The notes: generated by a model from the letters alone, not told the origin. Shown: positions 2,205 to 28,295, counted from the first letter of the stretch. The stretch: DNA of 32,000 nucleotides from Puniceicoccales bacterium (GCA_031288595.1 JAITRB010000018.1:1-32000), one strand, 5' to 3'. A program made the numbers and translations.

Positions 2205-2289
2205 CGCCGTCTTTGCAGGGATGAAAATAAACAATTTTCATCCCTGATGCCCGCTCCGCGGGCGATCTCTCCGAGATCCAAAGACGGCG
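2205..2289. repeat. Cloverleaf repeat, copy M (long-GC-short)
   Basis: Outer stem cgccgtctttg/caaagacggcg. Arms: cagggatgaaaat-aaaca-attttcatccctg, gcccgc-tcc-gcgggc, gatctc-tcc-gagatc. Confidence 0.85.
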
Positions 2290-2388
2290 AACTCGGACAC
2301 GAGCCCTTCCATCCCTCCTTCAAAAGGAGAAATTTAAAAGAACTCTGCTATCGCCAGAGGGCACGGGCCTTTTTCCCTAAAAGGGCGC

Positions 2389-3489
2389 ATGGATAGGCCT
2401 CCATCGGAGACAAAAGGGCAGGTGCTCGTCGCCATGTCCGGGGGCGTGGATAGTTCCGTGGCAGCCCTACTTCTACGGCAACAGGGCAGGGAAATTCTGG
2501 GTGCCTACATGCGCACCTGGCACAACGAGGATCAGCGGCAGCCGCTCGGCCACTGCCCCTGGGAGGAGGATCTACAGCAGGCCCGGAGCGTCGCCGAGAC
2601 CCTCCAAATCCCCTTTTCTGTCGTCAACATGATCGATCGCTACCGCCGATGGGTCGTAACGCCCCTCGTCGAGGGCTACCGGAATGGTCTGACCCCAAAT
2701 CCGGATATCCTCTGCAACCGACATATCAAATTCGGCTTCCTGGCCGACTACGCTCGAGAACTGGGCTATGCCGGTCTCGCTACCGGACACTACTGCCAAA
2801 AACGGACCCATGCCGATGCTTCCTGTGATCTGTTCGAAGGGGTCGATCCGAACAAGGATCAATCCTACTTCCTGGCCTATATCTCCCAATCCCAGCTGCA
2901 GTTCGCACAATTTCCAGTCGGCCATTTGAAAAAGCCCGACGTGCGCGCGCTGGCTGCAGAGGCGAATCTCCGCAATGCGGCGCGAAAGGATAGCCAGGGG
3001 ATCTGTTTCCTGGGCAAAGTCAAGATTCGGGATTTTCTGTCCCACTATATTCCCGACTCGCCCGGGCCCATCGTCGACCCTGAAGGACATATCCTGGGAG
3101 AGCACCGCGGACTCCATCAGTTCACCCTCGGGCAGCGCCACGGCATCCGCCTCCCGTCAAACCGAGATCACGAGCACTATGTCGTCGTGGCCAAGAATAG
3201 GGAAAAGAATCATCTCGTCGTGGCTCTGGAAGGCTCGGCCTCCGCGTTTCTCTTCCGCCGGAGATTCACCCTGCACCAGCTCCACTTCATCCACAAACGG
3301 ATAGAAAAGCCCTGCTGGCTCCTGGGTAAGCCGCGCCATCGGGATCCCTCGCAGAGCCTCTACTTCGAGCCTCTCGGCCCCAACAGCGCCGTCGTCGAAT
3401 TCCAAAACCCTCCGCGCGCCCTTGCCAGCGGACAGGTCCTCGCCCTCTACGATGAAAAATGCCTCCTAGGCGGAGGGATCTACGTTTAA
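2389..3489 (+). CDS. mnmA: tRNA 2-thiouridine(34) synthase MnmA
   Basis: N-terminal PP-loop VAMSGGVDSSVAA, then NPDILCN, DQSYFL and GICF motifs typical of MnmA/TrmU. 366 aa. Confidence 0.93.
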   Translation: MDRPPSETKGQVLVAMSGGVDSSVAALLLRQQGREILGAYMRTWHNEDQRQPLGHCPWEEDLQQARSVAETLQIPFSVVNMIDRYRRWVVTPLVEGYRNGLTPNPDILCNRHIKFGFLADYARELGYAGLATGHYCQKRTHADASCDLFEGVDPNKDQSYFLAYISQSQLQFAQFPVGHLKKPDVRALAAEANLRNAARKDSQGICFLGKVKIRDFLSHYIPDSPGPIVDPEGHILGEHRGLHQFTLGQRHGIRLPSNRDHEHYVVVAKNREKNHLVVALEGSASAFLFRRRFTLHQLHFIHKRIEKPCWLLGKPRHRDPSQSLYFEPLGPNSAVVEFQNPPRALASGQVLALYDEKCLLGGGIYV

Positions 3490-3845
3490 AAACGGACCAC
3501 AAAAGAGGCTCTTAAAACTAAACAAACAAATTCCGCTGAGAGAAAGCCTAATTATAAATATAAATTGCTTAAGAGAGGGCCCAAGATCACTTTCTAAGCC
3601 ATTTGTTCCTGAGTGGATATAGGCGATAAATTCTCAGGTTCCGGTATTTGAATTTACGACACTGCCCCTCATATACCAGTACAGCTCAAGCATCCACGTC
3701 CCAGTGACCCAAGTCTGCTTATAGGGATCCCAAATCTGATCTCCGTTGACCCGAACTCCGCCATCACGGAGTTCGCCTTCCCCGTTCTCTCGACGTTTGT
3801 GAAAGCATCGATGGGTTAAGCGTCTTCGTATCATCAGAGATGGCC

Positions 3846-4540
3846 TCATCTCCATCTCTGCCCTTGCCACTTGCTAGTATTTCCCCTTGCAATACCATCG
3901 CCTCCAGCGCCACTAATGGCAATTGCTGGAGTTGAACCGATGGCAGCTAGCCAGCCGAGGATCCGATATGGGCTCCCCCTGGATTCAGGAGCTTATCCAT
4001 CGTCGATCGAAACACTCCACGTGGCCATTGAAAAAGGAGATAAATCCCCCTCATCACCCTAGATATCCGTAGCAACATCCCACTTTCCGGAAGCAATGGT
4101 CCAGGCCATAGGTATAGGCGATCGGGTTCACTTCGGGAGACGCATCAGCATCTGGGTTCACTCCTGCTAGGGGCACGGCACTGACATGGAGCCAGGCGGC
4201 ACCCGTAGGCATGCCTCCGCCAGCATCGATGAGCACTTTAGGGACTTTGCCTCCTGCCATCTTTCCCCAACAGGCATCATCATTCCACAGAGAGACAGCC
4301 GCTTCATTGAGAACGCCCGCTCGAGCGAGTACCCTTGTCCAAGGATAAGCCACTATACCGTATCCACTCTCACTCCTGGACCTAGGGTCCCTGTCTCGCC
4401 GGAGAATCCGCTGCGATAATCGATAAATGCCAGCGCGATCTGCCGCATGTTGCTCGCTCCGCGCGCACGGTGGAAGTCCGAAGCCCCCCTTGTAGCAAGG
4501 GAATGAGGATGGCCGTAAGGATCGCGATGATCACGGGCAT
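3846..4540 (-). pseudogene. Decayed paralog of the adjacent prepilin-type (pseudopilin-like) gene
   Basis: Minus-strand pieces in three frames align with the intact neighbour. MPVIIAILTAILIPL lacks the GFTLxE cleavage motif. The other pieces are SNMRQIALAFIDYRSGF.., AYPWTRVLARAGVLNEAAVSLWNDD...NPIAYTYGLD, SGKWDVATDI-stop-GDEGGFISFFNGHVECFD, and a Gly/Ala-rich tail. There are at least two frameshifts and one in-frame TAG. Confidence 0.7.
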
Positions 4541-4553
4541 CCCCTCACTTCCC

Positions 4554-5231
4554 TCAACGTGAAGCCGCACTCTGCGTCGCGACTGGAGCGCTTCCCCCAG
4601 TAACGGTAGCCGCATCAATGGGACTCGTGACAGCAGACCCATCTGGGGCAACAAGTTTGCTTGCCGTGGTTTCAAACCATTCCACATGGCCATCGAGAAA
4701 AGCGACAAAGCCACCCGCATCCCCATAAACACCCTTAGAGGCATCCCAGTTTCCGGTTTCCAAATCCAACCCACGAGTCCAAGCGATCGGCGTCGTCGTG
4801 GCTGGGGCATTGGGATCCACACCAACCAACATCACCACGCTGGGGCCTGGATCAGTCCAATATCCATTGGAGGGCCAGCCGCTGCCGTTTTTGACAAATT
4901 TCGGAATATCCGTTTTCCCCTTCAACAGCGGATCATCCGTCCAGAAGTACACATTTGCCTCGTTGAGCACATTGGCCTTAGCCAACTCCAAGGCCCAATC
5001 GTAGTGCGATACTACCCTCGTAGGCATCGTCCGTTGATCCCCAAATGTATTGCTGTAATTCATATACGCCACCGCCAGTTGCCGCATGCTGTTCGAACCT
5101 CGCGTACGACGGGCGCTGTCGATCGCCTTTCGTACCGACGGAACAAGAATGGCCGAAAGGATAGCGATGATCGCGATCACCACCATTAACTCCATCAGTG
5201 TGAAGCCTTGTCCCCCAGATTTCTTCTCCAT
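4554..5231 (-). CDS. Prepilin-type N-terminal cleavage/methylation domain protein (type II secretion pseudopilin-like)
   Basis: MEKKSGGQ-GFTLMELMVVIAIIAILSAILVP is a class-III signal / N-methylation motif. The C-terminal GGFVAFLDGHVEWF motif is common in PVC-group pilin-like families. ATG at 5231 is preceded by ggagaggtg; the track start at 5240 is a GTG. Confidence 0.85.
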   Translation of the reverse strand: MEKKSGGQGFTLMELMVVIAIIAILSAILVPSVRKAIDSARRTRGSNSMRQLAVAYMNYSNTFGDQRTMPTRVVSHYDWALELAKANVLNEANVYFWTDDPLLKGKTDIPKFVKNGSGWPSNGYWTDPGPSVVMLVGVDPNAPATTTPIAWTRGLDLETGNWDASKGVYGDAGGFVAFLDGHVEWFETTASKLVAPDGSAVTSPIDAATVTGGSAPVATQSAASR

Positions 5232-5331
5232 AATACCCACCTCTCCAAATTCTGTAAAATCTATCAGCCCCGGTACGGGGCTGTTCTTTTCTAGTGTAGA
5301 GAATTGAATTTAACGAATATTCATACCGGCG

Positions 5332-6603
5332 TCAATATTTTAATGGGAAATTTCGACAGAATTCCCATACTTCGGCGCGAATGGCCTTGGGCAAATCATC
5401 GTCATTCGGTGCAGAGAGGATCCGTTCGATCCATGCAGCGATCAGCTTCATCTCCGCTTCCCGCATCCCACGGGTCGTCACGGCCGGAGTGCCCAGGCGC
5501 AGCCCGCTTGCCTGAAAGGGATTACGCGTCTCTCTCGGCACCGTATTGGCGTTGACCGTGATGCCGGCCGCTTCCAGGGCCGTCGCCGCCGCTCGGCCGC
5601 TCAAGTTCGGAGACGTCGGTCGCAGATCCAAGAGCAAGAGGTGATTCTCGGTACCGGAACCGACGAGGTACAGACCCAGCCGCTGCAATTCTCCGGCTAA
5701 AGCTCGGGCATTGGCCAAAATCTGCCGCTGGTAGTCCCCGAACTCCGGCCGCAAGGCCTCGCCGAAGCAGACTGCCTTCCCCGCGATGACATGCATCAGA
5801 GGCCCACCCTGATTGCCAGGGAAAACCGATGCGTCGATCGCCCGGGCCCATTTCTCCCGACACAGAATCATCCCGCCGCGAGGACCGCGCAGGGTCTTGT
5901 GCGTCGTCGTCGTGACGAAATCCGCATGGGGAATCGGAGAGGGGTGCAGTCCAGCCACGACCAGTCCGGCGATATGGGCGATGTCGGCCAGCAGCAGTGC
6001 CCCAGACGCCTGTGCGATCTCCCCGACCCTCTGGAAATCGATGGTCCTGGGATAGGCCGAGGCGCCGATGGTGATCAATCGCGGTCGCTCGCGGGTGGCG
6101 ATTTCTCCCAGAGCCTGGTAATCGATGGCACCGGTCTGCGGGTCGATGTCATAATGGGAAACCTGATAGAGCATGCCGCTGAGATTTTTGGGATGCCCAT
6201 GGGTCAGATGTCCCCCATTTTCGAGGGAAAGGCTCAGAATCCGGTCACCTGGCCTCAGCACTGCCGTGTAGACCGCGAGGTTCGCCTGGGTCCCCGAGTG
6301 CGGCTGGACATTGGCATGTTCCGCGCCGAAGAGCCGACGGGCACGCCCTATGGCCAGGGCCTCGATCCCATCCACGCATTCGCAGCCGCCATAATAGCGC
6401 CGCTGGGGATAGCCCTCGGCGTATTTGTTGGTCAAAATGCTGCCGACAGTTTCCAATATCGCTGGCGAGGTGAAATTTTCCGAGGCGATCAGCTCGATGC
6501 CCTCGTTCTGCCGGTGCCACTCTCGATGGATCCAGGTGGCCACTTCGGGATCCTGCCGCTCCAGAGAAGAGAGATTCATCATGGATCCCTGAGCATGGGC
6601 CAT
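5332..6603 (-). CDS. glyA: Serine hydroxymethyltransferase
   Basis: [23 protein letters not shown] and [14 protein letters not shown] (PLP lysine region). 423 aa. The start could instead be the internal MMNLSS (6582/6579). Confidence 0.95.
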
Positions 6604-6678
6604 CCACTGGCATCGGCAAATGAATTCTCTCCATCGATTCGGGAAATCGACAGCGGCTATTGCTACGGGTTTTGGTGT

Positions 6679-6776
6679 GCGCTGTCCTTTGGCTCCCGAA
6701 GGGAGCGCCCGCGCAGCGGGCCCCAGCGGAGAAAATCAAAGGGGCCCTTTGATTTTCTCCGCTGCAAAGACAGCGC
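6679..6776. repeat. Cloverleaf repeat, copy C (short-GC-long)
   Basis: Outer stem gcgctgtcctttg/caaagacagcgc (one bulged c). Arms: gctccc-gaa-gggagc, gcccgc-gca-gcgggc, cagcggagaaaatcaaagg-ggc-cctttgattttctccgctg. Confidence 0.85.
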
Positions 6777-6849
6777 CCCAAACACACAACACTCTCACTC
6801 CTCTCCCTCAGGACTTGTCGAACGGCTGCTATACTTATAACTCTCTTCC

Positions 6850-8226
6850 GTGATTCCATCAGCCAATGACAGTTCCTCCACCTGGGATACGGAAAAAATC
6901 TACAGCATTTCCTTCCTGACAGAGCAAATACAAGGCCTTCTGGACTCCCATATCCCCATGCTCTGGATCGGCGGCGAAGTCTCCAACTTCCGGCAGCAGA
7001 GCTCAGGCCATCTCTACTTCAGCCTCCAGGACGAGCGGAGCCAGATCGCCTGCGTTCTCTTCCGCGGCGATGCCCTGCAGCTCCGCTTCCCATTGGAAAA
7101 CGGAAAATCTATTATCTGCTACGGCAGCCTGGAGATCTATGCCCCGCGGGGTCAGTATCAGTGGATTGTACGCCACGTATTACCCTGCGGTACGGGGCAG
7201 CGGGATGCGGAATTCCAAAAACTCAAGGAGCGTTGCCGGAACGAAGGACTCTTCGATGCCGAGCGCAAGCGGCCGATCCCCCTCACGGCCTGTCCCATCG
7301 CTCTGCTCAGCTCCCCGACCGGTGCCGCACTGCAGGATTTTCTCCAAATCCTGCGCCGGAAGAACTGGCGAGGTGAGATCATCTTCTTCCCCTGCCGAGT
7401 GCAGGGCGATGAATCCGTCCAGGACTTTCTCCATAGTCTCTATCTGGCCCAGCAGTCTCCGGCTGAACTCATCGTCCTGGCCAGAGGCGGTGGCAGTGCT
7501 GAAGATCTTTGGGCCTTCAACTCCGAGGCTATCGTTAGAAAAATAGCTGATTGTTCCAAACCCATCATCTCCGCCATCGGTCATGAGACCGATTTCACTT
7601 TGGTCGACTTCGTAGCAGACCTGCGTGCCGAAACCCCCTCCGCCGCAGCGGAAATCATCGCGACGAATTATCAAAACGCCCGACAGCATTGGCGAGATTT
7701 AGAAGAACGGTTGACAGGAATTCTCGAAGAATACAAGCTCCGACAGCGGCAGCACTGGCAGTTTTTGCGACAACGCCTACAGCACGTCTCTCCCGAGCGG
7801 CTGATCGAGCACCGGCAGCACCAGCTCCAGCAGACCTCCCACCGATTTTTAGAAACCGCCCGCTTTACTCTCGCATCCAAAAGAGAAGGATTCCTGAGCC
7901 TTCAGCGGCGCTGGGAGAGCTATGACATCGGACGTAATCTCCGCAGCGGGTTTTTGATCGCCGAAAATTTTCAGGGAAAAATCCTCCGCCACCGTCATGA
8001 TGTCCCTCTGGGCAGTGAGCTGATCCTCCATTTCCAGGATGGCCCGCTGCAAGTTAGCAGCAGTGCCCCCTCGATAAGCTACCTCTCATCAGGGATAAGT
8101 AGTATGGATCAGATTCAAAGTCCTTCTCCCAGTCCTGGTGGTGGGGGAGCGATTCGAACGCTCGAAGGGGAAACCCCGACAGATTTACAGTCTGCACCCT
8201 TTAGCCTCTTGGATACCCCACCATGA
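6850..8226 (+). CDS. xseA: Exodeoxyribonuclease VII large subunit
   Basis: N-terminal OB-fold region (GEVSNFRQQSSGHLYFSLQDE), GGGSAEDLWAFN, ISAIGHETDFTL and ETPSAAAE motifs, then a coiled coil. GTG start at 6850. The last ~55 codons lie beyond the conserved C-terminus and overlap tRNA-Tyr antisense. Confidence 0.88.
   Translation: MIPSANDSSSTWDTEKIYSISFLTEQIQGLLDSHIPMLWIGGEVSNFRQQSSGHLYFSLQDERSQIACVLFRGDALQLRFPLENGKSIICYGSLEIYAPRGQYQWIVRHVLPCGTGQRDAEFQKLKERCRNEGLFDAERKRPIPLTACPIALLSSPTGAALQDFLQILRRKNWRGEIIFFPCRVQGDESVQDFLHSLYLAQQSPAELIVLARGGGSAEDLWAFNSEAIVRKIADCSKPIISAIGHETDFTLVDFVADLRAETPSAAAEIIATNYQNARQHWRDLEERLTGILEEYKLRQRQHWQFLRQRLQHVSPERLIEHRQHQLQQTSHRFLETARFTLASKREGFLSLQRRWESYDIGRNLRSGFLIAENFQGKILRHRHDVPLGSELILHFQDGPLQVSSSAPSISYLSSGISSMDQIQSPSPSPGGGGAIRTLEGETPTDLQSAPFSLLDTPP
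8136..8222 (-). tRNA. tRNA-Tyr (anticodon GTA), class II with long variable arm, CCA encoded
   Basis: The reverse complement reads ggtgggg-ta-tcca-agaggctaaa-gggt-g-cagac-tgtaaat-ctgtc-ggggtttccccttc-gagcg-ttcgaat-cgctc-ccccacc-a-cca. By memory of the E. coli sequence it is nearly collinear with E. coli tRNA-Tyr. Confidence 0.95.
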
Positions 8227-8365
8227 CCGGAATTTTTCTGAAGCTAGAGGCCCGTTGAGGCTTAGCAAGATAATTTTGTTCCATGGCCAGCTATGAGCTG
8301 CAGATGGGCGACCGAGTATCGTTGGGGAGGAGCGAAATTGCGAGAGGAGCAGGGCGGTGCTTGTG

Positions 8366-8461
8366 TTGCCGGCTTTGGCAGAGGAAGGCAGGGGCGCTGC
8401 CCCTGCCCTCCTCTGTGGCCCGCGTCGCGGGCCTGATTCCGCAGGAATCCAAAGCCGGCAA
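8366..8461. repeat. Cloverleaf repeat, copy D (long-GC-short)
   Basis: Outer stem ttgccggctttg/caaagccggcaa. Arms: cagaggaaggcagggg-cgct-gcccctgccctcctctg (1 mismatch), ggcccgc-gtc-gcgggcc, gattcc-gca-ggaatc. Confidence 0.85.
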
Positions 8462-8725
8462 ACGACAAAAATCCTCCCTATTTTTCCAATGAAAGAAAGC
8501 TCCACGAAACACCCAATTTCCCCATAAAGCCCCAGAAGACCAAAGGGTGTAAACCCCTACTCTTGCTATGGGGAGCTCGTTATCCCGTAAGTCCCAATAT
8601 CTACCCCAGGATAACACGATTAAAGCGAGCATATACGAAGGTGTATATTACCCCTCTCCATATGAGGCAGCCTGCGCAATTGTAGAGATGCCATGGGCAG
8701 AAGATAGATACCTCTGGATACGGAA

Positions 8726-9889
8726 TTACCTGACATACACTCGCCGGACTCGGGAAGGAATCGAGCAGAGGCACTCGCGGATGATGCGCTGCGACCAGCG
8801 GCAGAACTCGTTGAGCGTGATCTCATCCTCTCCGTCACGTCCGATCCAGGTCACGCGGTCGCCCACTCGAATGGGCATTCTGGCCCCTGTGATATCGAGG
8901 AGGGTCTGATCCATCGCCACCCGACCCAGGACTCTGAATCGCTGTCCGTGAATGAGCGCTTCGGCCACATTGGAAGCATGGGTCGAAATCCCATCGGCAT
9001 AACCGGCACTTAAAAGCGCGATATGGGTTGGTCGATGGGTCATCGCCATCGCGTCGTAGCCAATCGGGACTCCAGCCGGGAGCATTTTAACAAGACTGAC
9101 CCGGCTATAGAAGCTCAGAACCGGTTCTAGGGAGAGCGAACGGATGAAGGGCAGCTGGCACTCCGGCCCCACGCCGTACTGCAATGCGCCGATGCGAACG
9201 GCATTGCAGGGAGAATTTTCCCAGGTCCCCGGCAGCGAAAAGCTAGCACTCTCGTGAATCCAAAGTTCCGGAGACAGGGGGCCACAAGCCTTCTTATAGC
9301 GTTCCAGCCAATGGCCAAAGCGTCGGCGCTGGAGCTCGGTATAGGCCTGATTCGAACAGGCACAGGAAAAATGCGTCGCGATACCCGTGATGCGGAGCCA
9401 AGGGTCTCTGCCAAAGGCCCTAAGGGCCTCTTCCACCGCATCCCCGTACCAGAACCCGACCCGACCCATGCCTGTATCCACCTTCAGATGGACGGAAATC
9501 GCCTTTCCCCGCTCTTGCGCGTAGAGCCGCAGATGCCGCAGTTCTTCCAAACTCGACATGAAGGGCGTCAGCTGGTATTCGAATAAAAATGGAACTTCCT
9601 CCGGCAACACCGGGCTCAGAATGAGCACCGGAAGGCTTTTATCCTGCTCGCGAATGCGAATGGCCTCCTGCACATTGGCCACTCCGAAGGCATCGATGCC
9701 AAGCTGCAGCATCCGCGAAACAACAGCCGATAGGCCATGGCCATAGGCATCGGCCTTTACCACTGCGATGTAATGCGCGCAATCCGGGAGATGCTGACGG
9801 ATATGCTTAATATTGAGCTCTAGGAGCCCGAGGTCGATTTCAGCCCAGGCCCGAAGGGCGCGCGTATCGGTTGGCGTTGAAAAGAGCAT
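8726..9889 (-). CDS. alr: Alanine racemase
   Basis: The PLP-lysine motif VVKADAYGHG near the N-terminus, and the overall 387 aa Alr architecture. Confidence 0.92.
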   Translation of the reverse strand: MLFSTPTDTRALRAWAEIDLGLLELNIKHIRQHLPDCAHYIAVVKADAYGHGLSAVVSRMLQLGIDAFGVANVQEAIRIREQDKSLPVLILSPVLPEEVPFLFEYQLTPFMSSLEELRHLRLYAQERGKAISVHLKVDTGMGRVGFWYGDAVEEALRAFGRDPWLRITGIATHFSCACSNQAYTELQRRRFGHWLERYKKACGPLSPELWIHESASFSLPGTWENSPCNAVRIGALQYGVGPECQLPFIRSLSLEPVLSFYSRVSLVKMLPAGVPIGYDAMAMTHRPTHIALLSAGYADGISTHASNVAEALIHGQRFRVLGRVAMDQTLLDITGARMPIRVGDRVTWIGRDGEDEITLNEFCRWSQRIIRECLCSIPSRVRRVYVR

Positions 9890-10063
9890 GACTGAGGCTC
9901 AGCTATCTGGTCGCGTAATAGCGAAAGCGGAAGGAAGGACTGTCAAAAGCAAAAAATGTAAGAGGCAGAGGAAAAGTTTGGAAATTTGGAAGCTCCTTAT
10001 CTCTAGCCCTGTACTCCGCTCGGCCTATCCCCAGCCCAGGGATCCCGGGTTGGGAGGGTGGTG

Positions 10064-10154
10064 GGCTGGCTTTACAAGAGACAAATGGCAGAAGGCCATT
10101 TGCCTCTTGCCGCCCGCGCAGCGGGCCCGATGCCGAAGGCATCAAAAGCCAGCC
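10064..10154. repeat. Cloverleaf repeat, copy E (long-GC-short)
   Basis: Outer stem ggctggcttt/aaagccagcc. Arms: caagagacaaatggc-agaag-gccatttgcctcttg (1 mismatch), gcccgc-gca-gcgggc, gatgcc-gaa-ggcatc. Confidence 0.85.
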
Positions 10155-10319
10155 AGCAGAGAAATTCCCCAATTAGGCTATTGAGATAAAAGAACAACTG
10201 TTCCCAGCGAATACAGCAGGAGAAGCCTTTCTATTTCCCGAAGCGCCGAAAAGGGCAGCGTCAAAATGCTCAACCACAGCAAGTTCTCCTTGTCCAAAAC
10301 TAACTCCTCCAGTCCTTAC

Positions 10320-10397
10320 TGGGGTGGCTAACCGGATTCGAACCGGTGACCCTCGGAACCACAATCCGATGCTCTAACCAGCTGAGCTACAGCCACC
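10320..10397 (-). tRNA. tRNA-His (anticodon GTG) with encoded G-1 and CCA
   Basis: The reverse complement reads g-gtggctg-ta-gctc-agctggtta-gagc-a-tcgga-ttgtggt-tccga-gggtc-accgg-ttcgaat-ccggt-tagccac-c-cca. The extra 5' G paired with the discriminator C is the tRNA-His hallmark. Confidence 0.95.
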
Positions 10398-11642: not shown

Positions 11643-11771
11643 GGACTGCGATGAGGAGGAGTGGCAAGGGAAAAGGCAAACCTTGCCCAATTCCAGCTGA
11701 AGGCTTGGGGCGAAGAGAGGGAATTTGGGCGAAAGATCGGGAAAGATCGGTTGTCGGAAGTGGTCATTTTC

Positions 11772-11858
11772 TTCGCTGTCTTTGGATCCCGAAGGGATCG
11801 CTCGCGAAGCGAGCCCCAGGATGAAAAGCTTGCTTTTCATCCTGGCAAAGACAGCGAA
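11772..11858. repeat. Cloverleaf repeat, copy F (short-GC-long)
   Basis: Outer stem ttcgctgtctttg/caaagacagcgaa. Arms: gatccc-gaa-gggatc, gctcgc-gaa-gcgagc, ccaggatgaaaagc..gcttttcatcctgg. Confidence 0.85.
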
Positions 11859-11959
11859 CATAGCGAAGGACGCAATCCCCCCAACACTAGGAACCAAGCG
11901 AAAAATACCTAAAAACTTCCTCTGCCAGAAGGAGAAAAGGAGGGATTTCCCCGAAAACA

Positions 11960-15140: not shown

Positions 15141-15233
15141 GGGAATCGACTAGCAAGAACGCTAGGCAAAGAGAAGCTCCTCTTCAAGAGGATTCCATCG
15201 CCTTCTTCTCCAGTGCTGGAGCCTTAGTTTCAA

Positions 15234-15323
15234 CGCCTTAGGAGCCCGAAGGGCTCCTGTCCGCTCTGCGGACGGCGCTGGGGAAAAATAAAAAGCTTTT
15301 TATTTTTCCCCAGCGCCAAGGCG
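15234..15323. repeat. Cloverleaf repeat, copy G (short-GC-long; GCCTTG subfamily)
   Basis: Outer stem cgcctt(a)gg/ccaaggcg. Arms: gagccc-gaa-gggctc, gtccgc-tct-gcggac, cgctggggaaaaataaaaagc..gctttttatttttccccagcg. Confidence 0.8.
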
Positions 15324-15445
15324 GCGAAGCAAACCGGCCATGCCCCCAATTCCCCTTCACTCGCCGAACAACTCCCACAGGATATAAACTTGGATACAGA
15401 CCGTTTTTCATTGCCCATCTTACCCCATCCCCTTAGGACTAGGGC

Positions 15446-16240: not shown

Positions 16241-16309
16241 GCTCAATCGGCAAGTTTCGTTGGCAAACTGTGCTCGCACTGAACCTTGTCGCCGATTGAA
16301 GCGTCTGAA

Positions 16310-16406
16310 GGCCGCCTTGAGAGCCCTTCGGGCTCTGGCCTGCTCCGCAGGCTGCGCTTGAGGAAAGCTAAAGGCCTTTTAGCTTTCCTCAAGCGCCAAG
16401 GCGGCC
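16310..16406. repeat. Cloverleaf repeat, copy H (short-GC-long; GCCTTG subfamily)
   Basis: Outer stem ggccgccttg/ccaaggcggcc. Arms: gagccc-ttc-gggctc, gcctgc-tcc-gcaggc, cgcttgaggaaagctaaaagg-cc-ttttagctttcctcaagcg. Confidence 0.85.
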
Positions 16407-16545
16407 CACGGAAACCCTAGTCCCCAAAATTCCCAGTACCTGAACAGTCGTCGATGAACTCCCCCAAAGCCTCCCCACCCTCATGAACCCTTTCCGAAGG
16501 ACAGCCTCGACAAGGATCTAAACCCATCTAAGCTAAGGGATTCCT

Positions 16546-17647: not shown

Positions 17648-17697
17648 ATTTTCCCTCTTCTTTCCCGCCCTTTAAAGTGGATTCGGCATTCTCTTCA

Positions 17698-17781
17698 CTG
17701 GCTTTGTAAGAGGGGAAGGGAAGACTTCCTTCCCCTCTTAAGGCCCGCTTCGCGGGCGATTCCTCCGGAATCCAAAGCCAG
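17698..17781. repeat. Cloverleaf repeat, copy I (long-GC-short)
   Basis: Outer stem ctggctttg/caaagccag. Arms: taagaggggaaggg-aaga-cttccttcccctctta (bulged), ggcccgc-ttc-gcgggc, gattcc-tcc-ggaatc. Confidence 0.85.
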
Positions 17782-17898
17782 CGAAGACCCACCGAGAGCC
17801 AATACCGGAGCCTTCTGTTCTCATCGACCCACTCCGAGTTCCTGAACGACAAATGGCGTTGCCATGAGGGGCATTTTCCCTTTGCAAAAATACGCGTC

Positions 17899-22265: not shown

Positions 22266-22315
22266 GCCTGGATCGTGAGTCGGTGCCGAATTCCAGCGAT
22301 TTCACGGGCCTCTGC

Positions 22316-22408
22316 TTGGCTGGCTTTGCCTACCGGAAAGGCCTTCGGCCTTTCCGGTAGGCGGCCCGCTTCGCGGGCCCGATTTCTCCGAAATCGAAAG
22401 CCAGCCAA
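22316..22408. repeat. Cloverleaf repeat, copy K (long-GC-short)
   Basis: Outer stem ttggctggctttg/cgaaagccagccaa. Arms: cctaccggaaaggcc-ttcg-ggcctttccggtagg, ggcccgc-ttc-gcgggcc, gatttc-tcc-gaaatc. Confidence 0.88.
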
Positions 22409-22759
22409 CAGAATACCCTCACTTCTCCGGCAATCAAACCGGAGAAAAACTCACCTGAGAAAACCCTCAGGCGTTTTTGCTCCCTCCATTTGCCGTTGAC
22501 TCACCGTGGAATGTCCCAAAACCCTTTCCCGTGGAAACCTGTGATGGAGACCTGCGGCCCACGTCATTCCATCGGGAATTTTTCGAAAAAATCTCTCTGA
22601 AATCGAAGTGGATAGGGCCTGCTCTTGGGCTACTGGGGGCTTGTGCTGGCCCGGGCGATGCAGGTCAAGCGGAAGATCGATTCCGACGGCTATCCTCCCT
22701 TGGAGCAAGTTCGGGGATTTCTAAGCCAATTCTCCCACGGAAGACGTCACTTCTTCTCT

Positions 22760-23983
22760 ATGTCAAATTCCGGGACTGAGGAACTTTCCCTCTCTGAGCG
22801 CTCCCGTCTGACCCTTCGCTACGACACCCTCCGGCAGGCCTTCCAGGGTATTCTAGAGGCCGGTTTCAAAACCTATATCCTGCTCATCGCCATACGGGTC
22901 TTCCACATGGGTGCCTGGGAAAAATCCCTCCTCTCTTCCGCCGGTTTCGCCGGCCTGCTCTGTGCCCCTCTGGTCATGAAAGGGATGGCCCGTACCTCCT
23001 GGACGAGCATGCAGATCACTGCGCTCTACTTCTTCCTCGTCGCCGCCTGCTTCCTCATCGCTTCCCTAACTCAAGACGCGGGCCTTTACCTCGTCCTTCT
23101 CGTCGCCGCCCGATTCATCTACAAGCAGCAGATCCCCCTCATGATCGACGTCTACAGCCATAACTACGCGGCGGACGAGCGCGGTTCCAAACTGGGATTT
23201 TCCATGTTCTTCCTGGCGACGGTCAGCGTTTTCTTCTCCCTCCTGGCCGGCCAATGGCTCGACCGGCACTTGGACGCCTACCGCTGGATCCTCGTCCTCA
23301 TCGCCCTCTCTGCCCTCGGTAGCGCCCTCAGCTTTCTTAAAATTCCCTCCCGAAGGATCCCGAGCAGCTCAGGCCACCGCTGGGCCAACCTCAGCCTGCT
23401 CTGGAAGGACAAGCTCTTCACCGCCATCGTTCTCATCTGGGCCCTGGAGGGCATAGCCAACCAGATGACTATTCCCCTGCGGGTCGAGTACATCGCCCAC
23501 GAGCGCTACGGGCTCAATTTCTCCAATCACTGGGTCACCCTTCTGAGCTGCGTCATACCCTCCATCTTTCGCATCCTCGGCTCCCCGCTGTGGGGCTACC
23601 TCTTCGACCGCCTTTCCCTCGTTCAGATGAAGCTGTGGATCAATAGCCTGCTCCTCCTGGGAACCCTGGCCTACTTCTTCTCCTCGTCCCTGCTCGGCAT
23701 CCTCATCGGCTCCTGCTTCATCGGCATGGCCCATGGCGGCGGAGTCATCGCCTGGAGCCTCTGGGTCACGAAAATCGTTCCGGAAGAGTCCTGCTGCGAT
23801 TACCTCAGCCTCAGCGCAGCGGAATTCGGCTTGCGCAGCTTCATCTCCCCCTTCATCGGCTATGCCCTGCTGGAAGGGACGCAATCCTTGCCCTGCGTCG
23901 TCGCTATCGCCGTGCTCCTGATTTCCCTATCCTCGCTCGGATTTTGGCTCATCCGCCATCATGAGCGCTTGCGCCCCTCCTAA
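22760..23983 (+). CDS. MFS-type transporter
   Basis: About 12 hydrophobic segments with no soluble domain. The start is uncertain; ATG 22760 is chosen and the ORF opens at 22625. Confidence 0.72.
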   Translation: MSNSGTEELSLSERSRLTLRYDTLRQAFQGILEAGFKTYILLIAIRVFHMGAWEKSLLSSAGFAGLLCAPLVMKGMARTSWTSMQITALYFFLVAACFLIASLTQDAGLYLVLLVAARFIYKQQIPLMIDVYSHNYAADERGSKLGFSMFFLATVSVFFSLLAGQWLDRHLDAYRWILVLIALSALGSALSFLKIPSRRIPSSSGHRWANLSLLWKDKLFTAIVLIWALEGIANQMTIPLRVEYIAHERYGLNFSNHWVTLLSCVIPSIFRILGSPLWGYLFDRLSLVQMKLWINSLLLLGTLAYFFSSSLLGILIGSCFIGMAHGGGVIAWSLWVTKIVPEESCCDYLSLSAAEFGLRSFISPFIGYALLEGTQSLPCVVAIAVLLISLSSLGFWLIRHHERLRPS

Positions 23984-24022
23984 AATCTCTCCAGAATCGG
24001 GTCTAGATATCCTGGGGATTTT

Positions 24023-26509
24023 ATGAAAATCGACCTGAAATGGTTGAAACGCCACGTGGACATTCCGGTTTCCGCCGCGGAGCTGCTTGAGATTTTCCCG
24101 AAGCTCGGGATGGAGGTGGAGGCGAGCCACATCCGCGGCATGGAGTTCCAGCCCACCCTGGTCGTGGGCGAAATCATCGACATTGCGGCCCATCCCCAAG
24201 CCGATCGCCTGCAGGTCTGTCAGGTCAGGGTCGACGAAGGAAAGCCAAGGACCATCGTCTGTGGGGCGAAGAATTTCAAACGGGGAGACCGCGTGCCAGT
24301 CGCCCTGCCCGGTACCCTCCTGCCGGAAGGCTTCAAGATCGAGGCCCGCGAACTTCGCGGCATCCGCTCGGAAGGCATGATGTGCAGCGCTCGAGAACTG
24401 GGTATTTCCGATGAGCACGAAGGGCTTCTCATCTTGTCGGGGAATCCCAGCATTGGGACAGCCATCCAAGAGCTCTTCTCTTTGGAAGAGGCCGGTTTTG
24501 AAATCGAGACGACGGCGAATCGCGGCGAGCTCCTGAGCCACCTGGGAGTGGCCCGAGACTTGGCCGCGTTTTTTAGAAAGCCGCTGCGGGAAGAGGCCTT
24601 TCCGATCCCCATAGCTCCCTACCCCTCGGCATTGGCGGGTGGCCTTAAGCAAGAACTCATCCTTCAATCGGAAGAAGCGCCCTACTACTGCCTCTTCGAA
24701 ATCCGCGATCTTCGGGTGTGCGAAAGTCCGGACTGGCTTCAGCAGGACCTGAAGGCCATCGGCCTCAGGCCGATCAATAACGTCGTCGACCTCACGAACT
24801 GGATCCTCTTCGACTCCGGCCAGCCACTCCACGCCTTCGATGCCGATGTAGTGTGGGGCAATAGCCTCTATGTCCGGCCGTCTTGGGAGGGAGAGACTAT
24901 CCAGACCCTCGACGGACAGCAACGCTCGCTCGAGAAAGGGGTACTCGTCATCGCCGATGAGGACTCTGCTCTGTCCATTGCCGGCATCATGGGCGGAACA
25001 TCCTCAGCCATCCGGCCAGATACCTGCCACATTTTCCTCGAAAGTGCCTACTTTCGTCCTGCCAGCATCCGGCGTAGCAGCAAATGGCTCGGCCTGCGCA
25101 GCGACAGTTCCTACCGCTTCGAGCGCGACATCGACCCGGGCCGGACACTCGCAGCTGGCCAATGGGCCGCGCGGATGATCCTGCAGGTTTGCGGCGGAAC
25201 GCTGGTGGGCTGCCGCGTTTCGGGTCGGCCTCCACGGGAGAGGCGGGTCATCGAACTCACGCCTTCATGGGTGGCGGAGCGCTGTGGCTGCCCCATTGCT
25301 CTCGAGAGCGTGGCTGAAAATTTAAAAGCGCTCGGCTATGGGGTCGATCAGGCCCAGCTGCCCTGGAAGGTGGAAGTGCCCAGCTGTCGCGCCGATGTGC
25401 AGCGCCCCATCGACCTAGTCGAGGAATTTTTGAGAATCTACGGCAATGAAAGGATTCCCCTCTCAGCACCTTCAACCCCCGTCTACCATCGGGAAGACAC
25501 AGCGGCGGCCATCTATTTCCGCGAAGTGGCCGATTATCTCTGCCACCGCGGTGCCGTCGAGGCTTGCCACTCCTCCTTCCGCTCCGAAGCGGAAGCAGGC
25601 TTTGGGGAGAAAAATTTCCAAATGCTCCGAATCGAAAATCCCAGTGTGGAGAATCAAAGCCACCTGCGCCTCAGCCTCATTCCCGGACTGCTGGATACGC
25701 TGTCCTACAACCTGCAGAGCGGCCATGAAGTCCCGGAGCTCTTCGAGAACGGACATGTCTTCATCCCTCACGAGGGAAAATTATGGGAAGTCTACTCGAC
25801 GGCCTATATTCAAGCACTCGGTTTCCAGCGGCGGCACTGGGAGAAGCTCCCAGCTCCTGGGCTGATGAGACTCAAGGCTATGGCTCTATCGATGGCCTCC
25901 ATCGCCCAGATCTCGGAAGAGATTCTCCTGGGAAAAGGAGCAGAGCCGAGCGGCTTGTGGCAGGAGGAGAACAGCTGGCACTGCGGAAACCTCCTGGAGA
26001 AGCACTACCGTATTCAGCTCGGCATCCTCAACCCGGCTGGCTGTTCCCGGGAATTGCCCTATCCCGTCGCCGCTGTGGAGATCTGCCTCCTGCCACAGCA
26101 CTTTGAGAAGACAAGTCGCGTCGAGCCGCGCTTCCGCCCCTTCAGCCTCTATCCCAGAGCTTCGCGGGACTTGGCCCTCATGCTGGACCGCTCCCTGCCG
26201 GCCGAAACCGTGCGCCGGGAGGTTTTGCGGCTGGCCAGGCGCGCGGCTGGGCGGCACTTCGAGGTCCAAGAGGTGGAGATATTCGATATCCACGAAGGAG
26301 AAAATCTCCCTGCGGGGAAGAAAAGCCTCGCGCTAGCCATCGATTTCTATTCCGAGCAGCGCACGCTCCGAGAATCGGAGGTGCAACACGCCTTCGAGCT
26401 GCTCCAACGCTTCATCCTTCGGGAAACTCCCTACGAAATTCGCTGCGATAGGGAACACGAAAGCTCCCTGCAGATGAAAGCGATCCCTCATGAAGATGGA
26501 GGGAGATAG
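24023..26509 (+). CDS. pheT: Phenylalanine--tRNA ligase beta subunit
   Basis: N-terminal MKIDLKWLKRHV, a tRNA-binding OB domain (HPQADRLQVCQVRV...CGAKN), B3/4 and B5 domains, and a C-terminal FDX-ACB domain. 828 aa. Confidence 0.94.
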   Translation: MKIDLKWLKRHVDIPVSAAELLEIFPKLGMEVEASHIRGMEFQPTLVVGEIIDIAAHPQADRLQVCQVRVDEGKPRTIVCGAKNFKRGDRVPVALPGTLLPEGFKIEARELRGIRSEGMMCSARELGISDEHEGLLILSGNPSIGTAIQELFSLEEAGFEIETTANRGELLSHLGVARDLAAFFRKPLREEAFPIPIAPYPSALAGGLKQELILQSEEAPYYCLFEIRDLRVCESPDWLQQDLKAIGLRPINNVVDLTNWILFDSGQPLHAFDADVVWGNSLYVRPSWEGETIQTLDGQQRSLEKGVLVIADEDSALSIAGIMGGTSSAIRPDTCHIFLESAYFRPASIRRSSKWLGLRSDSSYRFERDIDPGRTLAAGQWAARMILQVCGGTLVGCRVSGRPPRERRVIELTPSWVAERCGCPIALESVAENLKALGYGVDQAQLPWKVEVPSCRADVQRPIDLVEEFLRIYGNERIPLSAPSTPVYHREDTAAAIYFREVADYLCHRGAVEACHSSFRSEAEAGFGEKNFQMLRIENPSVENQSHLRLSLIPGLLDTLSYNLQSGHEVPELFENGHVFIPHEGKLWEVYSTAYIQALGFQRRHWEKLPAPGLMRLKAMALSMASIAQISEEILLGKGAEPSGLWQEENSWHCGNLLEKHYRIQLGILNPAGCSRELPYPVAAVEICLLPQHFEKTSRVEPRFRPFSLYPRASRDLALMLDRSLPAETVRREVLRLARRAAGRHFEVQEVEIFDIHEGENLPAGKKSLALAIDFYSEQRTLRESEVQHAFELLQRFILRETPYEIRCDREHESSLQMKAIPHEDGGR

Positions 26510-27788
26510 CATGGGGGCGATGGAGGAGCACTCCTGTCAACGGACGGCCTGGTTCGTATGGTTGGCTGCCGTCACCTTTTACGGCTATGAGTTCTTCGTG
26601 CGCGTCGCCCCGGGCAGCATGTTCCAGGAGATGCAGCGGAGCTACGGGGTCACGGCGGGGCTTTTCGGGTTCGCTTCTGGTACCTACTACTATATCTATG
26701 CCCCTATCCAAATCATCGCCGGTGCATTTTTCGACCGCTTCGGCGGGAGAAAGGTACTCCTGCCGGCCAGCCTCTGCGTGGCGCTCGGCTGCGCCTGCGT
26801 CCTGCTACCCCTACCCTCTCTGGGCCTCTTTGCCCTGGGGAGATTGCTCATGGGCCTGGGTTCCGGCTTTGGCTTCATCGGGGTCATGTATCTGGCCACC
26901 GTATGCTTTTCCAAGAGAAAGCTGTCCCTCATCTCCGGCCTGACCACCGCTATAGGATTCCTGGGCGCCATTCTGACCCTGCAGTACATCCCCCGGCTCG
27001 TCGAACGCATCGGCTGGCAGTCCTGTTGGTTCGGCGCCAGCATTTTCGGCCTGCTGTCGGCTGCCCTTCTGGGTATCGCCATCCCTCGCTCGCCTCGCCC
27101 CAAAACTGAGCAGCAGGACTCCCATTTCCAAGAAGAAGGGCCTTCTTTTCTCACGGGGCTCTGGCAGGTGCTGAAAAACCCCCAGACCTGGGTCATCGGT
27201 GGCATCGCCGGCGTGCTCTACGCCACACCGACTGTCTTCGGCGACCTGTGGGGGAATGCTTATTTTCGGAACGTAGCCCAGGCATCCAACGAAAGTGCCG
27301 GCCAGAGCGTGGCCATGCTCTACCTCGGCTGGTTTCTCGGGGCCCCGTTCTTCGGCTGGCTCTCGGACAGAACGCGGAAGAAAAAGATACTTCTCCAGGT
27401 CGCGACTCTGCTCTGCGGCCTGCTGCTGTGTCTCTTCCTCTATGGCGATGCTTCCCTAAATACCCTGCGGATTTGGCTCCTGCTCATCGGCTTTTTCGGA
27501 ACGCCCGAGGTCGCCTGCTTCACGGCCTCCATCGAAAACAATCCGAGCCATGCCAGTGGCAGTGCGGTAGCGGTGGTCAATATGATCGTAATGCTCCTAG
27601 GGGGACTCACCCAGCCCCTTGTGGGATGGATCGTCGAGATCCTGTCCTCCTCCGGCATCGGGCAGAACACCGGGACGGCCGGCATCCACGAGCTCCGCCT
27701 CGCCCTCGGTCTCCTGCCCCTTCTCAGTTTCCTCGGATTCATCCTGTGCTTTTTCTACGACGAGAAGACCGAGGAGCAGCATCCGTAG
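26490..27788 (+). CDS. MFS transporter
   Basis: 12-TM pattern with the MFS loop motif FFDRFGGRKVLL between TM2 and TM3. The first ATG overlaps the pheT 3' end by 20 nt; alternative starts are at 26511 and 26520. Confidence 0.82.
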   Translation: MKMEGDSMGAMEEHSCQRTAWFVWLAAVTFYGYEFFVRVAPGSMFQEMQRSYGVTAGLFGFASGTYYYIYAPIQIIAGAFFDRFGGRKVLLPASLCVALGCACVLLPLPSLGLFALGRLLMGLGSGFGFIGVMYLATVCFSKRKLSLISGLTTAIGFLGAILTLQYIPRLVERIGWQSCWFGASIFGLLSAALLGIAIPRSPRPKTEQQDSHFQEEGPSFLTGLWQVLKNPQTWVIGGIAGVLYATPTVFGDLWGNAYFRNVAQASNESAGQSVAMLYLGWFLGAPFFGWLSDRTRKKKILLQVATLLCGLLLCLFLYGDASLNTLRIWLLLIGFFGTPEVACFTASIENNPSHASGSAVAVVNMIVMLLGGLTQPLVGWIVEILSSSGIGQNTGTAGIHELRLALGLLPLLSFLGFILCFFYDEKTEEQHP

Positions 27789-27849
27789 GAAGCTTTCGAT
27801 TGCCAGATGGAGAATGAGCCCTATCCTCCTCTCTGAGAACTAAGGGAAG

Positions 27850-28191
27850 ATGGGAACAGTTCGAAATTCCAAGCTCTTCGCGGCGCTTCTGGCCAGCCTC
27901 CTCTGTCTACCCAGTCTCGAAGGAACAGCCCGCCCATACCGATCCTCACCACCGCCCCCTGCGTCGAGCAACGACTTTTTTCGAAAATACTCCTGCCGCT
28001 ACACCCCTTTCGACCCTTCCACGGCCCGACCGGCTCCGGCTCGATTCCGCAACAACACGGCCACTGCTCATCCCCTTCCCCCGGCCAATTCGAAGCCCTT
28101 GAAGCTGCAGCGGATCAACCCTTCCTCCTCACGGCCCTCCCAGAGGCCCGGCCAACCCGTCCCTAGCTTGTCCGCCGGAATGGCCCCCTAG
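27850..28191 (+). CDS. Hypothetical small secreted Pro/Ser-rich protein
   Basis: ATG preceded by aagggaag, with a signal-peptide-like N-terminus MGTVRNSKLFAALLASLLCLPSLEG. The rest is low-complexity and no homolog is recognised. Confidence 0.4.
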   Translation: MGTVRNSKLFAALLASLLCLPSLEGTARPYRSSPPPPASSNDFFRKYSCRYTPFDPSTARPAPARFRNNTATAHPLPPANSKPLKLQRINPSSSRPSQRPGQPVPSLSAGMAP

Positions 28192-28199
28192 GCCTTCTG

Positions 28200-28295
28200 C
28201 CGCTGTCTTTGGATTCCGCAGGAATCCGCCCGCTACGCGGGCCGCAAGGGGCGAAAAAGAAAAGAATTTTTTTTCGCCCCTTGCAAAGACAGCGG
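28200..28295. repeat. Cloverleaf repeat, copy L (short-GC-long)
   Basis: Outer stem ccgctgtctttg/caaagacagcgg. Arms: gattcc-gca-ggaatc, gcccgc-tac-gcgggc, caaggggcgaaaaa-gaaaagaattt-tttttcgccccttg. Confidence 0.88.

Follow-up and report, generated by a model that had tools for sequence, protein, structure and literature searches.

Short palindromic repeats between bacterial genes include the REP, BIME and REPIN elements, whose copies run to hundreds and which belong with RAYT (IS200/IS605-like Y1) transposases. REPs are single imperfect palindromes of 20-40 nt carrying a GTAG or CGTC tag, and the system is thought to act as single-stranded DNA (ssDNA) hairpins. REPs occasionally lie inside repair genes (PMC3733652). 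Bacterial MITEs (Correia, ERIC/IRU, RUP, BOX, QMITE; reviewed in PMC10969869) are small, non-coding, multi-copy elements with terminal inverted repeats and stable predicted folds, and show subfamilies, nested copies and presence/absence polymorphism. Rickettsia palindromic elements (RPEs) are palindromic repeats that can lie in frame within a protein-coding gene and add a peptide, and integron attC sites, read as folded ssDNA, hold a variable self-complementary middle between conserved paired ends.

The repeat described here, from a 32,000-nt stretch of a Puniceicoccales bacterium (the window), is new and restricted to its lineage, and is a relative of the selfish REP/MITE-type repeats of bacteria. 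With REPs it shares numerous short palindromic copies placed between genes in either orientation, a conserved hairpin, the lack of target-site duplications, the likeness to ssDNA hairpins and an occurrence inside a repair gene. Unlike REPs, it is 90-105 nt long with four helices, has no GTAG tag, shows CGTC only in the GCCGTC outer-stem variant and lacks the inverted-dimer organisation of REPINs. No RAYT was matched, nor was a transposase or other partner protein identified: a tblastn search of 210 kb, which represents a minor fraction of the genomes and thus makes the test weak, gave no hit at E<0.7 for approximate sequences of IS608 TnpA and E. coli RAYT. The MITE features listed above all recur, with a 13-bp outer stem as the terminal repeats, whereas target-site duplications are absent, the composition is GC-rich rather than AT-rich, the fold is a branched junction with a sequence-free arm, and resident copies are upheld by compensatory change instead of decaying. 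As with RPEs, one copy adds a peptide (40 residues, in the MutL of a relative), but this is a single intragenic case, without sequence relationship and in another host phylum. The attC likeness stops at the R/L core sites (GTTRRRY), which are missing; the conserved ends are CTTTG/CAAAG, two extra conserved hairpins are present, and the copies, scattered in both orientations between housekeeping genes, form no one-way cassette array.

Architecture and distribution of the repeat

Each copy combines a 13-bp outer stem, two 6-bp triloop hairpins (HP1 and HP2) and a long arm of 10-26 bp (median 17) in a four-way junction. The outer stem (NN-GCNGNCTTTG pairing with CAAAGNCNGC-NN) forms terminal inverted repeats whose CTTTG/CAAAG core is conserved while the outer positions covary. 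The composition of the long arms shifts from GC-rich at the base to AT-rich at the tip, and about 4.6% of their positions are non-Watson-Crick. The triloops are closed by C-G in 136 of 136 cases and read GNA or its complement TNC in 76%; c(GNA)g is the classic minihairpin motif of very high stability in DNA. Folded as single strands, the 11 intact window copies all adopt the same junction (DNA-parameter z -7.9 to -13.0; none of 200 shuffles as good), which 71 of 78 copies reach overall.

Eleven intact copies and one interrupted copy, all non-coding and distributed over both strands, occupy positions 458-28296. They include the copies reported by the first-pass annotation, with every stem variant it listed, and two more beyond its range (487-576 and 458-656):

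458..656, minus strand, interrupted host copy: direct reading and nhmmer core hit, CM 28.3 bits for 584-661; the segment 656-596 carries the outer 5' half, HP1, HP2 and the 5' half of the arm, the segment 483-458 the arm's 3' half CCATTTTTCATGGG and a degenerate outer 3' half ACAAATACAGCC
487..576, minus strand, intact copy c1, nested within the long-arm loop of 458-656: CM 76.2 bits, DNA fold z -10.2; subfamily GGCTGCC / GCTTCC / GCCCGCC / arm GCCGAAGCCCCC
2203..2291, minus strand, intact copy c3, between gatA and mnmA and antisense to both: CM 87.3 bits, fold z -10.4
6678..6777, plus strand, intact copy c4, in the divergent region glyA(-)/xseA(+): CM 91.1 bits, fold z -10.1
8365..8462, minus strand, intact copy c5, between alr(-) and tRNA-Tyr(-): CM 77.8 bits, fold z -10.0; ortholog L002:7005-7104, related-arm paralog within L015 mutL
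10062..10156, minus strand, intact copy c6, between tRNA-His(-) and alr(-): CM 82.7 bits, fold z -7.9
11772..11858, plus strand, intact copy c7, rare HP2 variant GCTCGC/GCGAGC: CM 84 bits, fold z -10.4
15229..15328, plus strand, intact copy c8, intergenic between divergent genes: CM 87.8 bits, fold z -9.8
16308..16408, plus strand, intact copy c9, HP2 variant GCCTGC/GCAGGC: CM 89.1 bits, fold z -10.1
17694..17785, minus strand, intact copy c10, upstream of hisS and antisense: CM 92.6 bits, fold z -8.2
22316..22408, minus strand, intact copy c11, CTTTC junction and HP1 GATTTC: CM 88.8 bits, fold z -13.0
28199..28296, plus strand, intact copy c12, upstream of mutL: CM 102 bits, fold z -10.6; ortholog L015:232-338
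29019..29023, plus strand, empty site in mutL (CCAG gtgct CTGG), filled in the relative L015

The 210 kb of clade sequence covered contain 82 copies, or roughly one every 2.6 kb. This high copy number goes with extragenic placement and no orientation bias; relative to neighbouring genes, copies are sense in 8 cases, antisense in 8, divergent in 7 and convergent in 6. Outside the window, a scan of 185,579 species genomes matched the family in only three Puniceicoccales MAGs, and none was found in the metagenome collection searched. Among the Rfam 15 covariance models only tRNAs exceeded gathering scores; the sub-threshold hits over the elements were to generic miRNA-hairpin models.

Covariation, constraint and inheritance of the long arm

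The covariation of all four helices that had been read from the window is borne out in the larger sample. RNAalifold recovered 34 pairs from the window copies alone, with double-sided changes in 24. In an alignment of 82 copies (A3), 98.3% of cells are paired, compared to 74.3% with shuffled 3' partners and 43-51% when the structures are slid by 1-3 columns; both sides change in 29 of the 34 pairs, and none of 500 shuffles matched the observed values. Orthologous copies showed 27 double changes where about 3.3 were expected, so that double-sided changes occur at about eight times the independence prediction (11 vs. 1.4; 16 vs. 1.85).

Stems of orthologous copies vary 4-5 times less than unpaired sites (close pairs 7.9% vs. 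32%, distant pairs 10% vs. 47.5%). Element identity between orthologs is 0.68-0.92, whereas their 80-nt flanks mostly lie at 0.41-0.65 (one at 0.76), with unrelated sequence at 0.50; the c10 ortholog (L011:6926-7024), for example, is 91% identical between flanks at random level. Resident copies are thus islands of conservation, which argues for selection on the secondary structure, one of the two explanations that the first-pass annotation had offered. Individual loci show how the pairing is kept. The HP1 of c3 differs from its ortholog (L029:27-128) by a compensated T-A to C-G change, the c9 ortholog (L011:5221-5331) has compensated changes in HP2 and arm, and the c4 ortholog (L001:1790-1890) shows six compensated pairs together with a flip of the HP1 loop from GAA to TTC. 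Copy c7 has orthologs at L011:146-238 and L002:3563-3657; its rare HP2 and the arm core GATGAAAA are kept in all three, and the first HP1 pair reads G-C, A.C and A-T across the three genomes. Comparison of the same locus among relatives revealed paired changes, but also uncompensated intermediates: single-sided changes (A.C, C.T and G.T states) occurred in 14 of 229 pairs in close orthologs, and mismatches remain at 44 of 965 arm positions.

The long arm had been described as unique in every copy, with no sequence shared. This is true of the window, whose 11 arms are mutually different, and fails at the scale of the family. An arm at least 85% identical was found at an unlinked locus with unrelated flanks for 21 of 71 parsed copies, and for 15 of 41 copies in the best-sampled relative; the arm of c1 recurs at L022:6767, L011:3854 and L029:1793. 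Identical or near-identical arms between unrelated flanks indicate that arms travel with the element. Orthologous loci, in turn, hold recognisably the same arm over about 30% genome divergence. In 70-85% of copies at each position, a purine in the 5' half of the arm faces a pyrimidine in the 3' half (consensus CAGGGGAAAA...TTTTCCCCTG), a shared pattern by which we regard the arms as diverged homologues and not as unrelated sequences. Discrete arm subfamilies, which had been considered as a counter-case to uniqueness, do exist, but they are many rather than few. The half-arms gave no matches to neighbouring DNA, a comparison that had also been suggested. We conclude that a subfamily passes on its long arm and that ordinary compensatory changes preserve the pairing.

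Mobility and alternative origins

Two sites differ in occupancy between the window and relatives. In L015, a 125-nt element-containing insert (1183-1307) occupies the mutL position that is empty in the window; by BLASTP, it adds 40 residues in frame, and the MutL domains are kept in both proteins. This is the one clear intragenic insertion, seven other ORF overlaps being start-codon artefacts that lie upstream of the first domain. In L011, a second element (3855-3947) is inserted within the HP1 loop of the c8 ortholog and splits it, whereas c8 of the window has no insert. Insertion into hairpin loops is also seen in the nesting of c1 in the arm loop of another copy, an arrangement found again in L029. 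No excess of 2-5-nt direct repeats was found at any boundary offset of 66 copies, and no target-site duplication is evident at the two recently filled sites. We conclude that the element is currently or formerly mobile, although the two sites could instead represent precise losses in the window lineage and not gains in the relative. With the fold, the covariation, the inheritance of arms by subfamily, the presence/absence polymorphism and the constraint on resident copies all observed, the probable explanation appears to us to be a family of structured DNA repeats, specific to the lineage, that are mobile but non-autonomous and behave like REP/MITE-type elements.

That the copies are instead RNA structures serving the host (3'-end protective or terminator-like structures, or small RNAs), repeated through recruitment and not selfish spread, seems unlikely. 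It would agree with the compensatory changes in the conservation islands of resident copies, with the short distance from stop codon to element in several copies (c12 8 nt, c3 29 nt) and with the somewhat higher frequency of G.T than of A.C in the arms; the latter difference (19 vs. 10) is not significant, yet a strand-specific role as RNA or ssDNA is possible on its account. Against it, copies are oriented at random to the flanking genes (8 sense and 8 antisense), 7 copies occupy divergent promoter regions, wobble use is strand-symmetric (G.U counts of 34 vs. 27), no Rfam model matches, the 3-nt GNA/TNC loops differ from the tetraloops typical of selected RNA hairpins, and insertion polymorphism and nesting indicate mobility. 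An intrinsic (Rho-independent) terminator was rejected, given those divergent copies, the lack of a U-tract 3' of the structure and a terminator signal not above shuffles (22 terminator-like sites vs. 21.7 expected, none of them long arms). Random orientation, strand-symmetric pairing and C-G-closed triloops together give the appearance of a DNA-level hairpin element and not of an RNA gene or terminator, and we infer that the element folds as DNA.

That one half-arm is written from the other (by snap-back or template-switch synthesis or by hairpin-directed repair), giving each copy a freshly paired arm, had been put forward as the second explanation and is considerably more doubtful. Template switching is documented as a source of new and repaired hairpins and of inverted loops, and its quasipalindrome footprints (perfect stems, multi-base compensated changes, inverted loops; PMC8794818) are present here: stems are almost entirely Watson-Crick, the c9 and c3 orthologs show adjacent multi-base compensated changes, and triloops that are exact reverse complements occur on identical stems, once between orthologs (GAA vs. 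TTC). However, exact-complement loop pairs show no excess over the loop-pool prediction, arms are unchanged between unlinked copies and persist at orthologous loci rather than being remade per copy, uncompensated changes are common at short divergence, and unbiased copying would not slow the stems. Such a mechanism is thus unneeded and for the most part unsupported. With inherited arms and purifying constraint on the stems, template switching, a process and not an element family, is at most a contributor; the loop flips suggest that it may occasionally repair or flip a hairpin. Very improbable is an origin of the long arm by capture of target DNA, in which the conserved parts would have inserted around a hairpin already present at the locus, such as a terminator, to give locus-specific arms. 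New copies do enter hairpin loops and the window arms do differ from each other, but identical arms stand at unlinked loci, half-arms have no other match nearby, and the empty mutL site has no arm-like hairpin. Moreover, the arm is internal, flanked by HP2 on one side and the outer 3' half on the other, so capture would need two coordinated insertions. The idea is largely refuted.

Proposed mode of spread and significance

For the mobile DNA repeat that we favour, we propose that a trans-acting enzyme or binding protein reads the junction-proximal CTTTG/CAAAG and the GATNCC and GCCCGC hairpins, which would explain the conservation of these sequences. The long arm would need only to form a stable helix, with pairing as its sole constraint, and would drift by compensatory substitution, mainly transitions, with purines retained on the 5' side. 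Spread would copy the whole unit including the arm and thereby give rise to subfamilies with a common arm. Entry of new copies into hairpin loops without target-site duplication would fit an ssDNA hairpin-recognising enzyme, possibly of the HUH/Y1 type.

Purely selfish elements are expected to decay after insertion; resident orthologs keep their structure over about 30% divergence, which points to a benefit or constraint at the locus beyond the selfish model. It is conceivable, though unlikely, that the four-way junction is the functional unit of an undescribed system. This could be hairpin-loop-targeting transposition without target-site duplication on a branched ssDNA-junction substrate, or else junction or cruciform sites domesticated across the genome at fixed intergenic positions, under host-level selection and served by a lineage-specific reader protein; one arm would be free in sequence, not in pairing.

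An uncultured Verrucomicrobiota lineage thus gains a well-defined repeat family of unusual branched architecture, which is able to interrupt or lengthen genes, mutL being an example. Annotation of these genomes can draw on the covariance model, which also serves to flag assembly breaks and spurious ORF extensions caused by the repeat. The orthologous copies, with the G-C, A.C, A-T series as one example, are a clean natural case of compensatory evolution at non-coding loci. The family may flag a mobilisation route that targets hairpin loops, and its conserved residents amid randomised flanks turn into a testable question whether REP-like repeats are merely selfish or maintained by the host.

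Copies of the repeat and their fold

Three routes (a scan for two neighboring 6-bp hairpins with perfect stems, a repeat search and a profile of the core) led to one family, of which 11 intact copies and one interrupted copy lie in the window. The window itself is a housekeeping chromosomal stretch (about 57% GC) with gatA, mnmA, glyA, xseA, alr, lptF/G, hisS, pheT and mutL as well as tRNA-Tyr, tRNA-His and tRNA-Gln. The first-pass annotation placed the family at 2205-28295, where it is indeed present, but two copies (487-576 and 458-656) fall outside that range.

Copies of the repeat in the window (position, strand, description)
487-576, minus, intact
2203-2291, minus, intact
6678-6777, plus, intact
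8365-8462, minus, intact
10062-10156, minus, intact (c6)
11772-11858, plus, intact (c7)
15229-15328, plus, intact (c8)
16308-16408, plus, intact
17694-17785, minus, intact
22316-22408, minus, intact
28199-28296, plus, intact
458-656, minus, interrupted twelfth copy, split because the 487-576 copy occupies its long-arm loop

From 5' to 3', the element consists of an outer stem, hairpin 1 (HP1; 6 bp, GATNCC type), hairpin 2 (HP2; 6 bp, mostly GCCCGC), a spacer of 0-3 nt and a long arm of 10-26 bp (median 17). The long arms have a GC-rich base and an AT-rich tip and lack a U-tract. The 13-bp outer stem pairs NN-GCNGNCTTTG with CAAAGNCNGC-NN; covariation extends to its two outermost pairs (86% and 82% Watson-Crick, versus 34-37% in shuffles), and base pairing ends past them. 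Complementarity between the flanks runs out after 2-3 bp, and therefore insertion into long pre-existing palindromes is not general. All window copies adopt a four-way junction when folded as single-stranded DNA (z -7.9 to -13.0), a fold found in 71 of 78 copies from all sources.

In most copies, the roughly 5-8 nt outside the 13-bp outer stem are unpaired, T-rich on the 5' side and A/G-rich on the 3' side (e.g., window 11762-11771 and 11859-11870), and could belong to the mobile unit or reflect a preferred target. A larger, very GC-rich variant (0.73-0.80), in which the second hairpin or arm is expanded and G-rich runs occur (GGGTGGGTGGGG / CCCACCCACCC), was also observed, with low model scores (49-60 bits).

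Larger GC-rich variants (locus of a related Puniceicoccales MAG:position)
L024:2610-2737
L024:6848-6973
L003:6106-6228
L005:355-500
L027:2840

Two further structured stretches were observed in the window. At 8136-8222 (minus strand), ARAGORN calls a tRNA-Tyr (GTA), and the Rfam tRNA model is silent at gathering, with a sub-threshold tRNA-Sec match (34.5 bits). The mechanical xseA ORF (6850-8226) overruns this tRNA, which is 91% identical to the related locus L001, the neighboring genes being only about 70% identical. At 5265-5283, between a pilin-like ORF (4554-5240, minus) and glyA (5332-6603, minus), a GC-rich hairpin that has a perfect 8-bp stem and T-runs on either strand looks like a conventional bidirectional terminator with no relation to the repeat family.

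When one genome from each of 185,579 species was scanned for the exact pattern, the element appeared in only three Puniceicoccales (Verrucomicrobiota) MAGs: JAITKE, which shares synteny with the window at 82-87% nucleotide identity, JAITIW, syntenic at about 70% identity, and JAIRRP. With a covariance model trained on the window copies, 82 copies were identified in 210 kb, or about one per 2.6 kb. The strict pattern yielded no element in a metagenome collection. A relaxed two-gap pattern yielded 86 stretches there, which are chance matches, as the covariance model rejected all but one weak match of 29 bits. Rfam, at gathering and permissive thresholds, contained no family for the element and returned just tRNAs and chance miRNA-hairpin matches, and a literature search on cloverleaf-type repeats gave nothing relevant.

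Covariation and the origin of the pairing

The central claim of the first-pass annotation, that all four helices covary, is borne out by RNAalifold, by an alignment of 82 copies and by orthologous pairs. RNAalifold on the window copies alone gave 34 pairs, 24 of them changed on both sides. In the 82-copy alignment, which was fitted to the structure and contains many cells shared by subfamily descent, pairing reaches 98.3% of cells (versus 74.3% with reshuffled 3' partners and 43-51% with slid structures) and 29 of 34 pairs show double-sided change; none of 500 shuffles matched the observed values. Because of this fitting and inheritance, changes were also counted between orthologous copies, which are free of subfamily inheritance.

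Changes between orthologous copies (pairs; single-sided; double-sided; doubles expected under independence; sites changed)
Window versus JAITKE orthologs: 229; 14; 11 (8 Watson-Crick to Watson-Crick); 1.4; stem 7.9%, unpaired 32%
More distant orthologous pairs: 185; 5; 16 (14 Watson-Crick to Watson-Crick); 1.85; stem 10%, unpaired 47.5%

Single-sided changes are common at short divergence, while double-sided changes predominate at long divergence. Intermediates are visible as well (at c7, three genomes have G-C, A.C and A-T as the first HP1 pair), and together this is the pattern expected of ordinary compensatory evolution. Orthologous copies retain identities of 0.74-0.92 (JAITKE) and 0.68-0.73 (JAITIW); most of their 80-nt flanks fall at 0.41-0.65 and one at 0.76 (unrelated sequence, 0.50). 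Therefore, the resident copies are constrained.

The pairing had been attributed either to selection on secondary structure or to a mechanism copying one half-arm from the other. Selection is supported by the conservation of copies over flanks and by stem sites changing more slowly than unpaired sites. An unbiased process copying one arm from the other cannot be the whole story, because it would leave stem substitution unslowed. Template switching (PMC8794818) may contribute to the pairing: triloops occur as exact complements on identical stems (GAA versus TTC in one orthologous pair), and some orthologs carry adjacent multi-base compensated changes, although complement loop pairs are no commoner than the loop pool predicts. 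We conclude that the structure and its covariation are real and strong.

Inheritance of the long arm and mobility of the element

The long arm had been described as unique in every copy. This holds for the 11 window arms, which all differ, but not for the wider family, in which arms are shared and define subfamilies. Contrary to the uniqueness proposed, arms fall into multi-locus subfamilies: for 21 of 71 copies, in a small sample, an unlinked locus has an arm of 85% identity or more (15 of 41 copies in JAITKE).

Arm subfamilies (arm; loci)
CAAGCCACAAACC...GGTTTGTGGCTTG; L021:3448, L023:6701, L023:5302
GCCGAAGCCCCC; window 574, L022:6767, L011:3854, L029:1793; own outer-stem, HP1 and HP2 variants travel along
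GCGCTAAGGAAAAATGAAAGC; six loci

Copies that share an arm have unrelated flanks, and orthologous loci retain their arms (at the c7 locus, the rare HP2 GCTCGC and the arm core GATGAAAA are found in three genomes). A comparison with all available DNA matched each half-arm only to itself, its own complement and related copies; half-arms were therefore not copied from neighboring sequence, and the search suggested in the first-pass annotation found no donor. Purines occupy the 5' side in 70-85% of copies at every arm position. Descent from a common ancestor near CAGGGGAAAA by transition-type compensation, in which A-T passes through G.T to G-C, would leave this bias. Subfamily inheritance together with slow compensatory drift explains the "hypervariable, unique" arm.

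At the mutL site, JAITKE carries a 125-nt copy-containing insert (L015:1183-1307) versus 5 nt in the window (29019-29023), between CCAG and CTGG. The net difference of 120 nt is in-frame and adds 40 residues to JAITKE MutL between the ATPase and transducer domains. Additionally, a copy of the GCCGAAGCCCCC subfamily sits in the HP1 loop of the JAITKE ortholog of c8, and the copy nested in the arm loop of another is common to the window and JAITKE. A hairpin loop is the target in all three cases, and no target-site duplications were found. Instead of reflecting gains in JAITKE, both filled/empty sites could in principle have arisen by precise loss from the window lineage.

The JAITKE mutL insert holds an element copy and a solo outer-stem fragment, and window mutL has no insert. 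Solo duplicated outer-stem 3' ends (e.g., CCAAAGCCGGC, AAAGACAGCCCCA, CTTGCAAAGACAGCGA) lie a few to tens of nt past complete copies and may be remnants of abortive or partial events.

Solo outer-stem 3' ends
L015:1183-1207
L005, downstream of the 311 (minus) copy
L023, downstream of the 5302 (minus) copy

Copy c6 (10062-10156) lacks a counterpart in the syntenic JAITIW interval (window 9824-10320 versus L002:5378-5524, about 146 nt), which is a further presence/absence difference between species. A tblastn search of the 210 kb for Y1 transposases, a weak test with approximate query sequences, gave no match.

Probable action as DNA, known families and gene annotation

We favor an element that acts as DNA rather than RNA. 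Its orientation relative to neighboring genes is random (8 sense, 8 antisense, 7 divergent, 6 convergent), and wobble pairs are equal whichever strand is folded (34 versus 27). Ungapped arms contain 19 G.T and 10 A.C (not significant). G.T pairs with G on the 5' side at first seemed in excess, but this vanished when both strands were folded alike. C-G closes each of the 136 triloops, of which 76% have the sequence GNA or its complement TNC; c(GNA)g, as in GCGAAGC, is a classic very stable DNA minihairpin, whereas tetraloops are preferred in selected RNA hairpins. Terminator-like sites were not enriched.

The element fits best among bacterial structured interspersed repeats, as a new variant restricted to its lineage. 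Like REP/BIME, MITE-type and IS200/IS605-type hairpin elements, it is intergenic, present in high copy number, defined by its structure and free of target-site duplications. However, it is not the single tagged 20-40-nt palindrome that defines a REP (PMC3733652), nor does it have the target-site duplications needed for a classical MITE (PMC10969869). The mutL insertion has parallels in the RPEs of Rickettsia and in REPs reported from within repair genes (PMC3733652, PMC10969869). The likeness to attC sites extends only to a variable paired middle flanked by conserved paired ends.

By mechanical ORF calling, 27 copies appeared to be intragenic, of which mutL is the sole confirmed case. When seven long element-bearing ORFs were compared with Pfam, five had a family and two had none; in all five, the element lies upstream of the first domain, and we therefore regard them as start-codon extension artefacts. 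The repeats are free of stop codons in some frames, so that mechanical ORFs stretch upstream through them (e.g., window 480-2174, where gatA appears about 100 codons too long). In these genomes, stop-free repeats probably cause mis-annotated starts.
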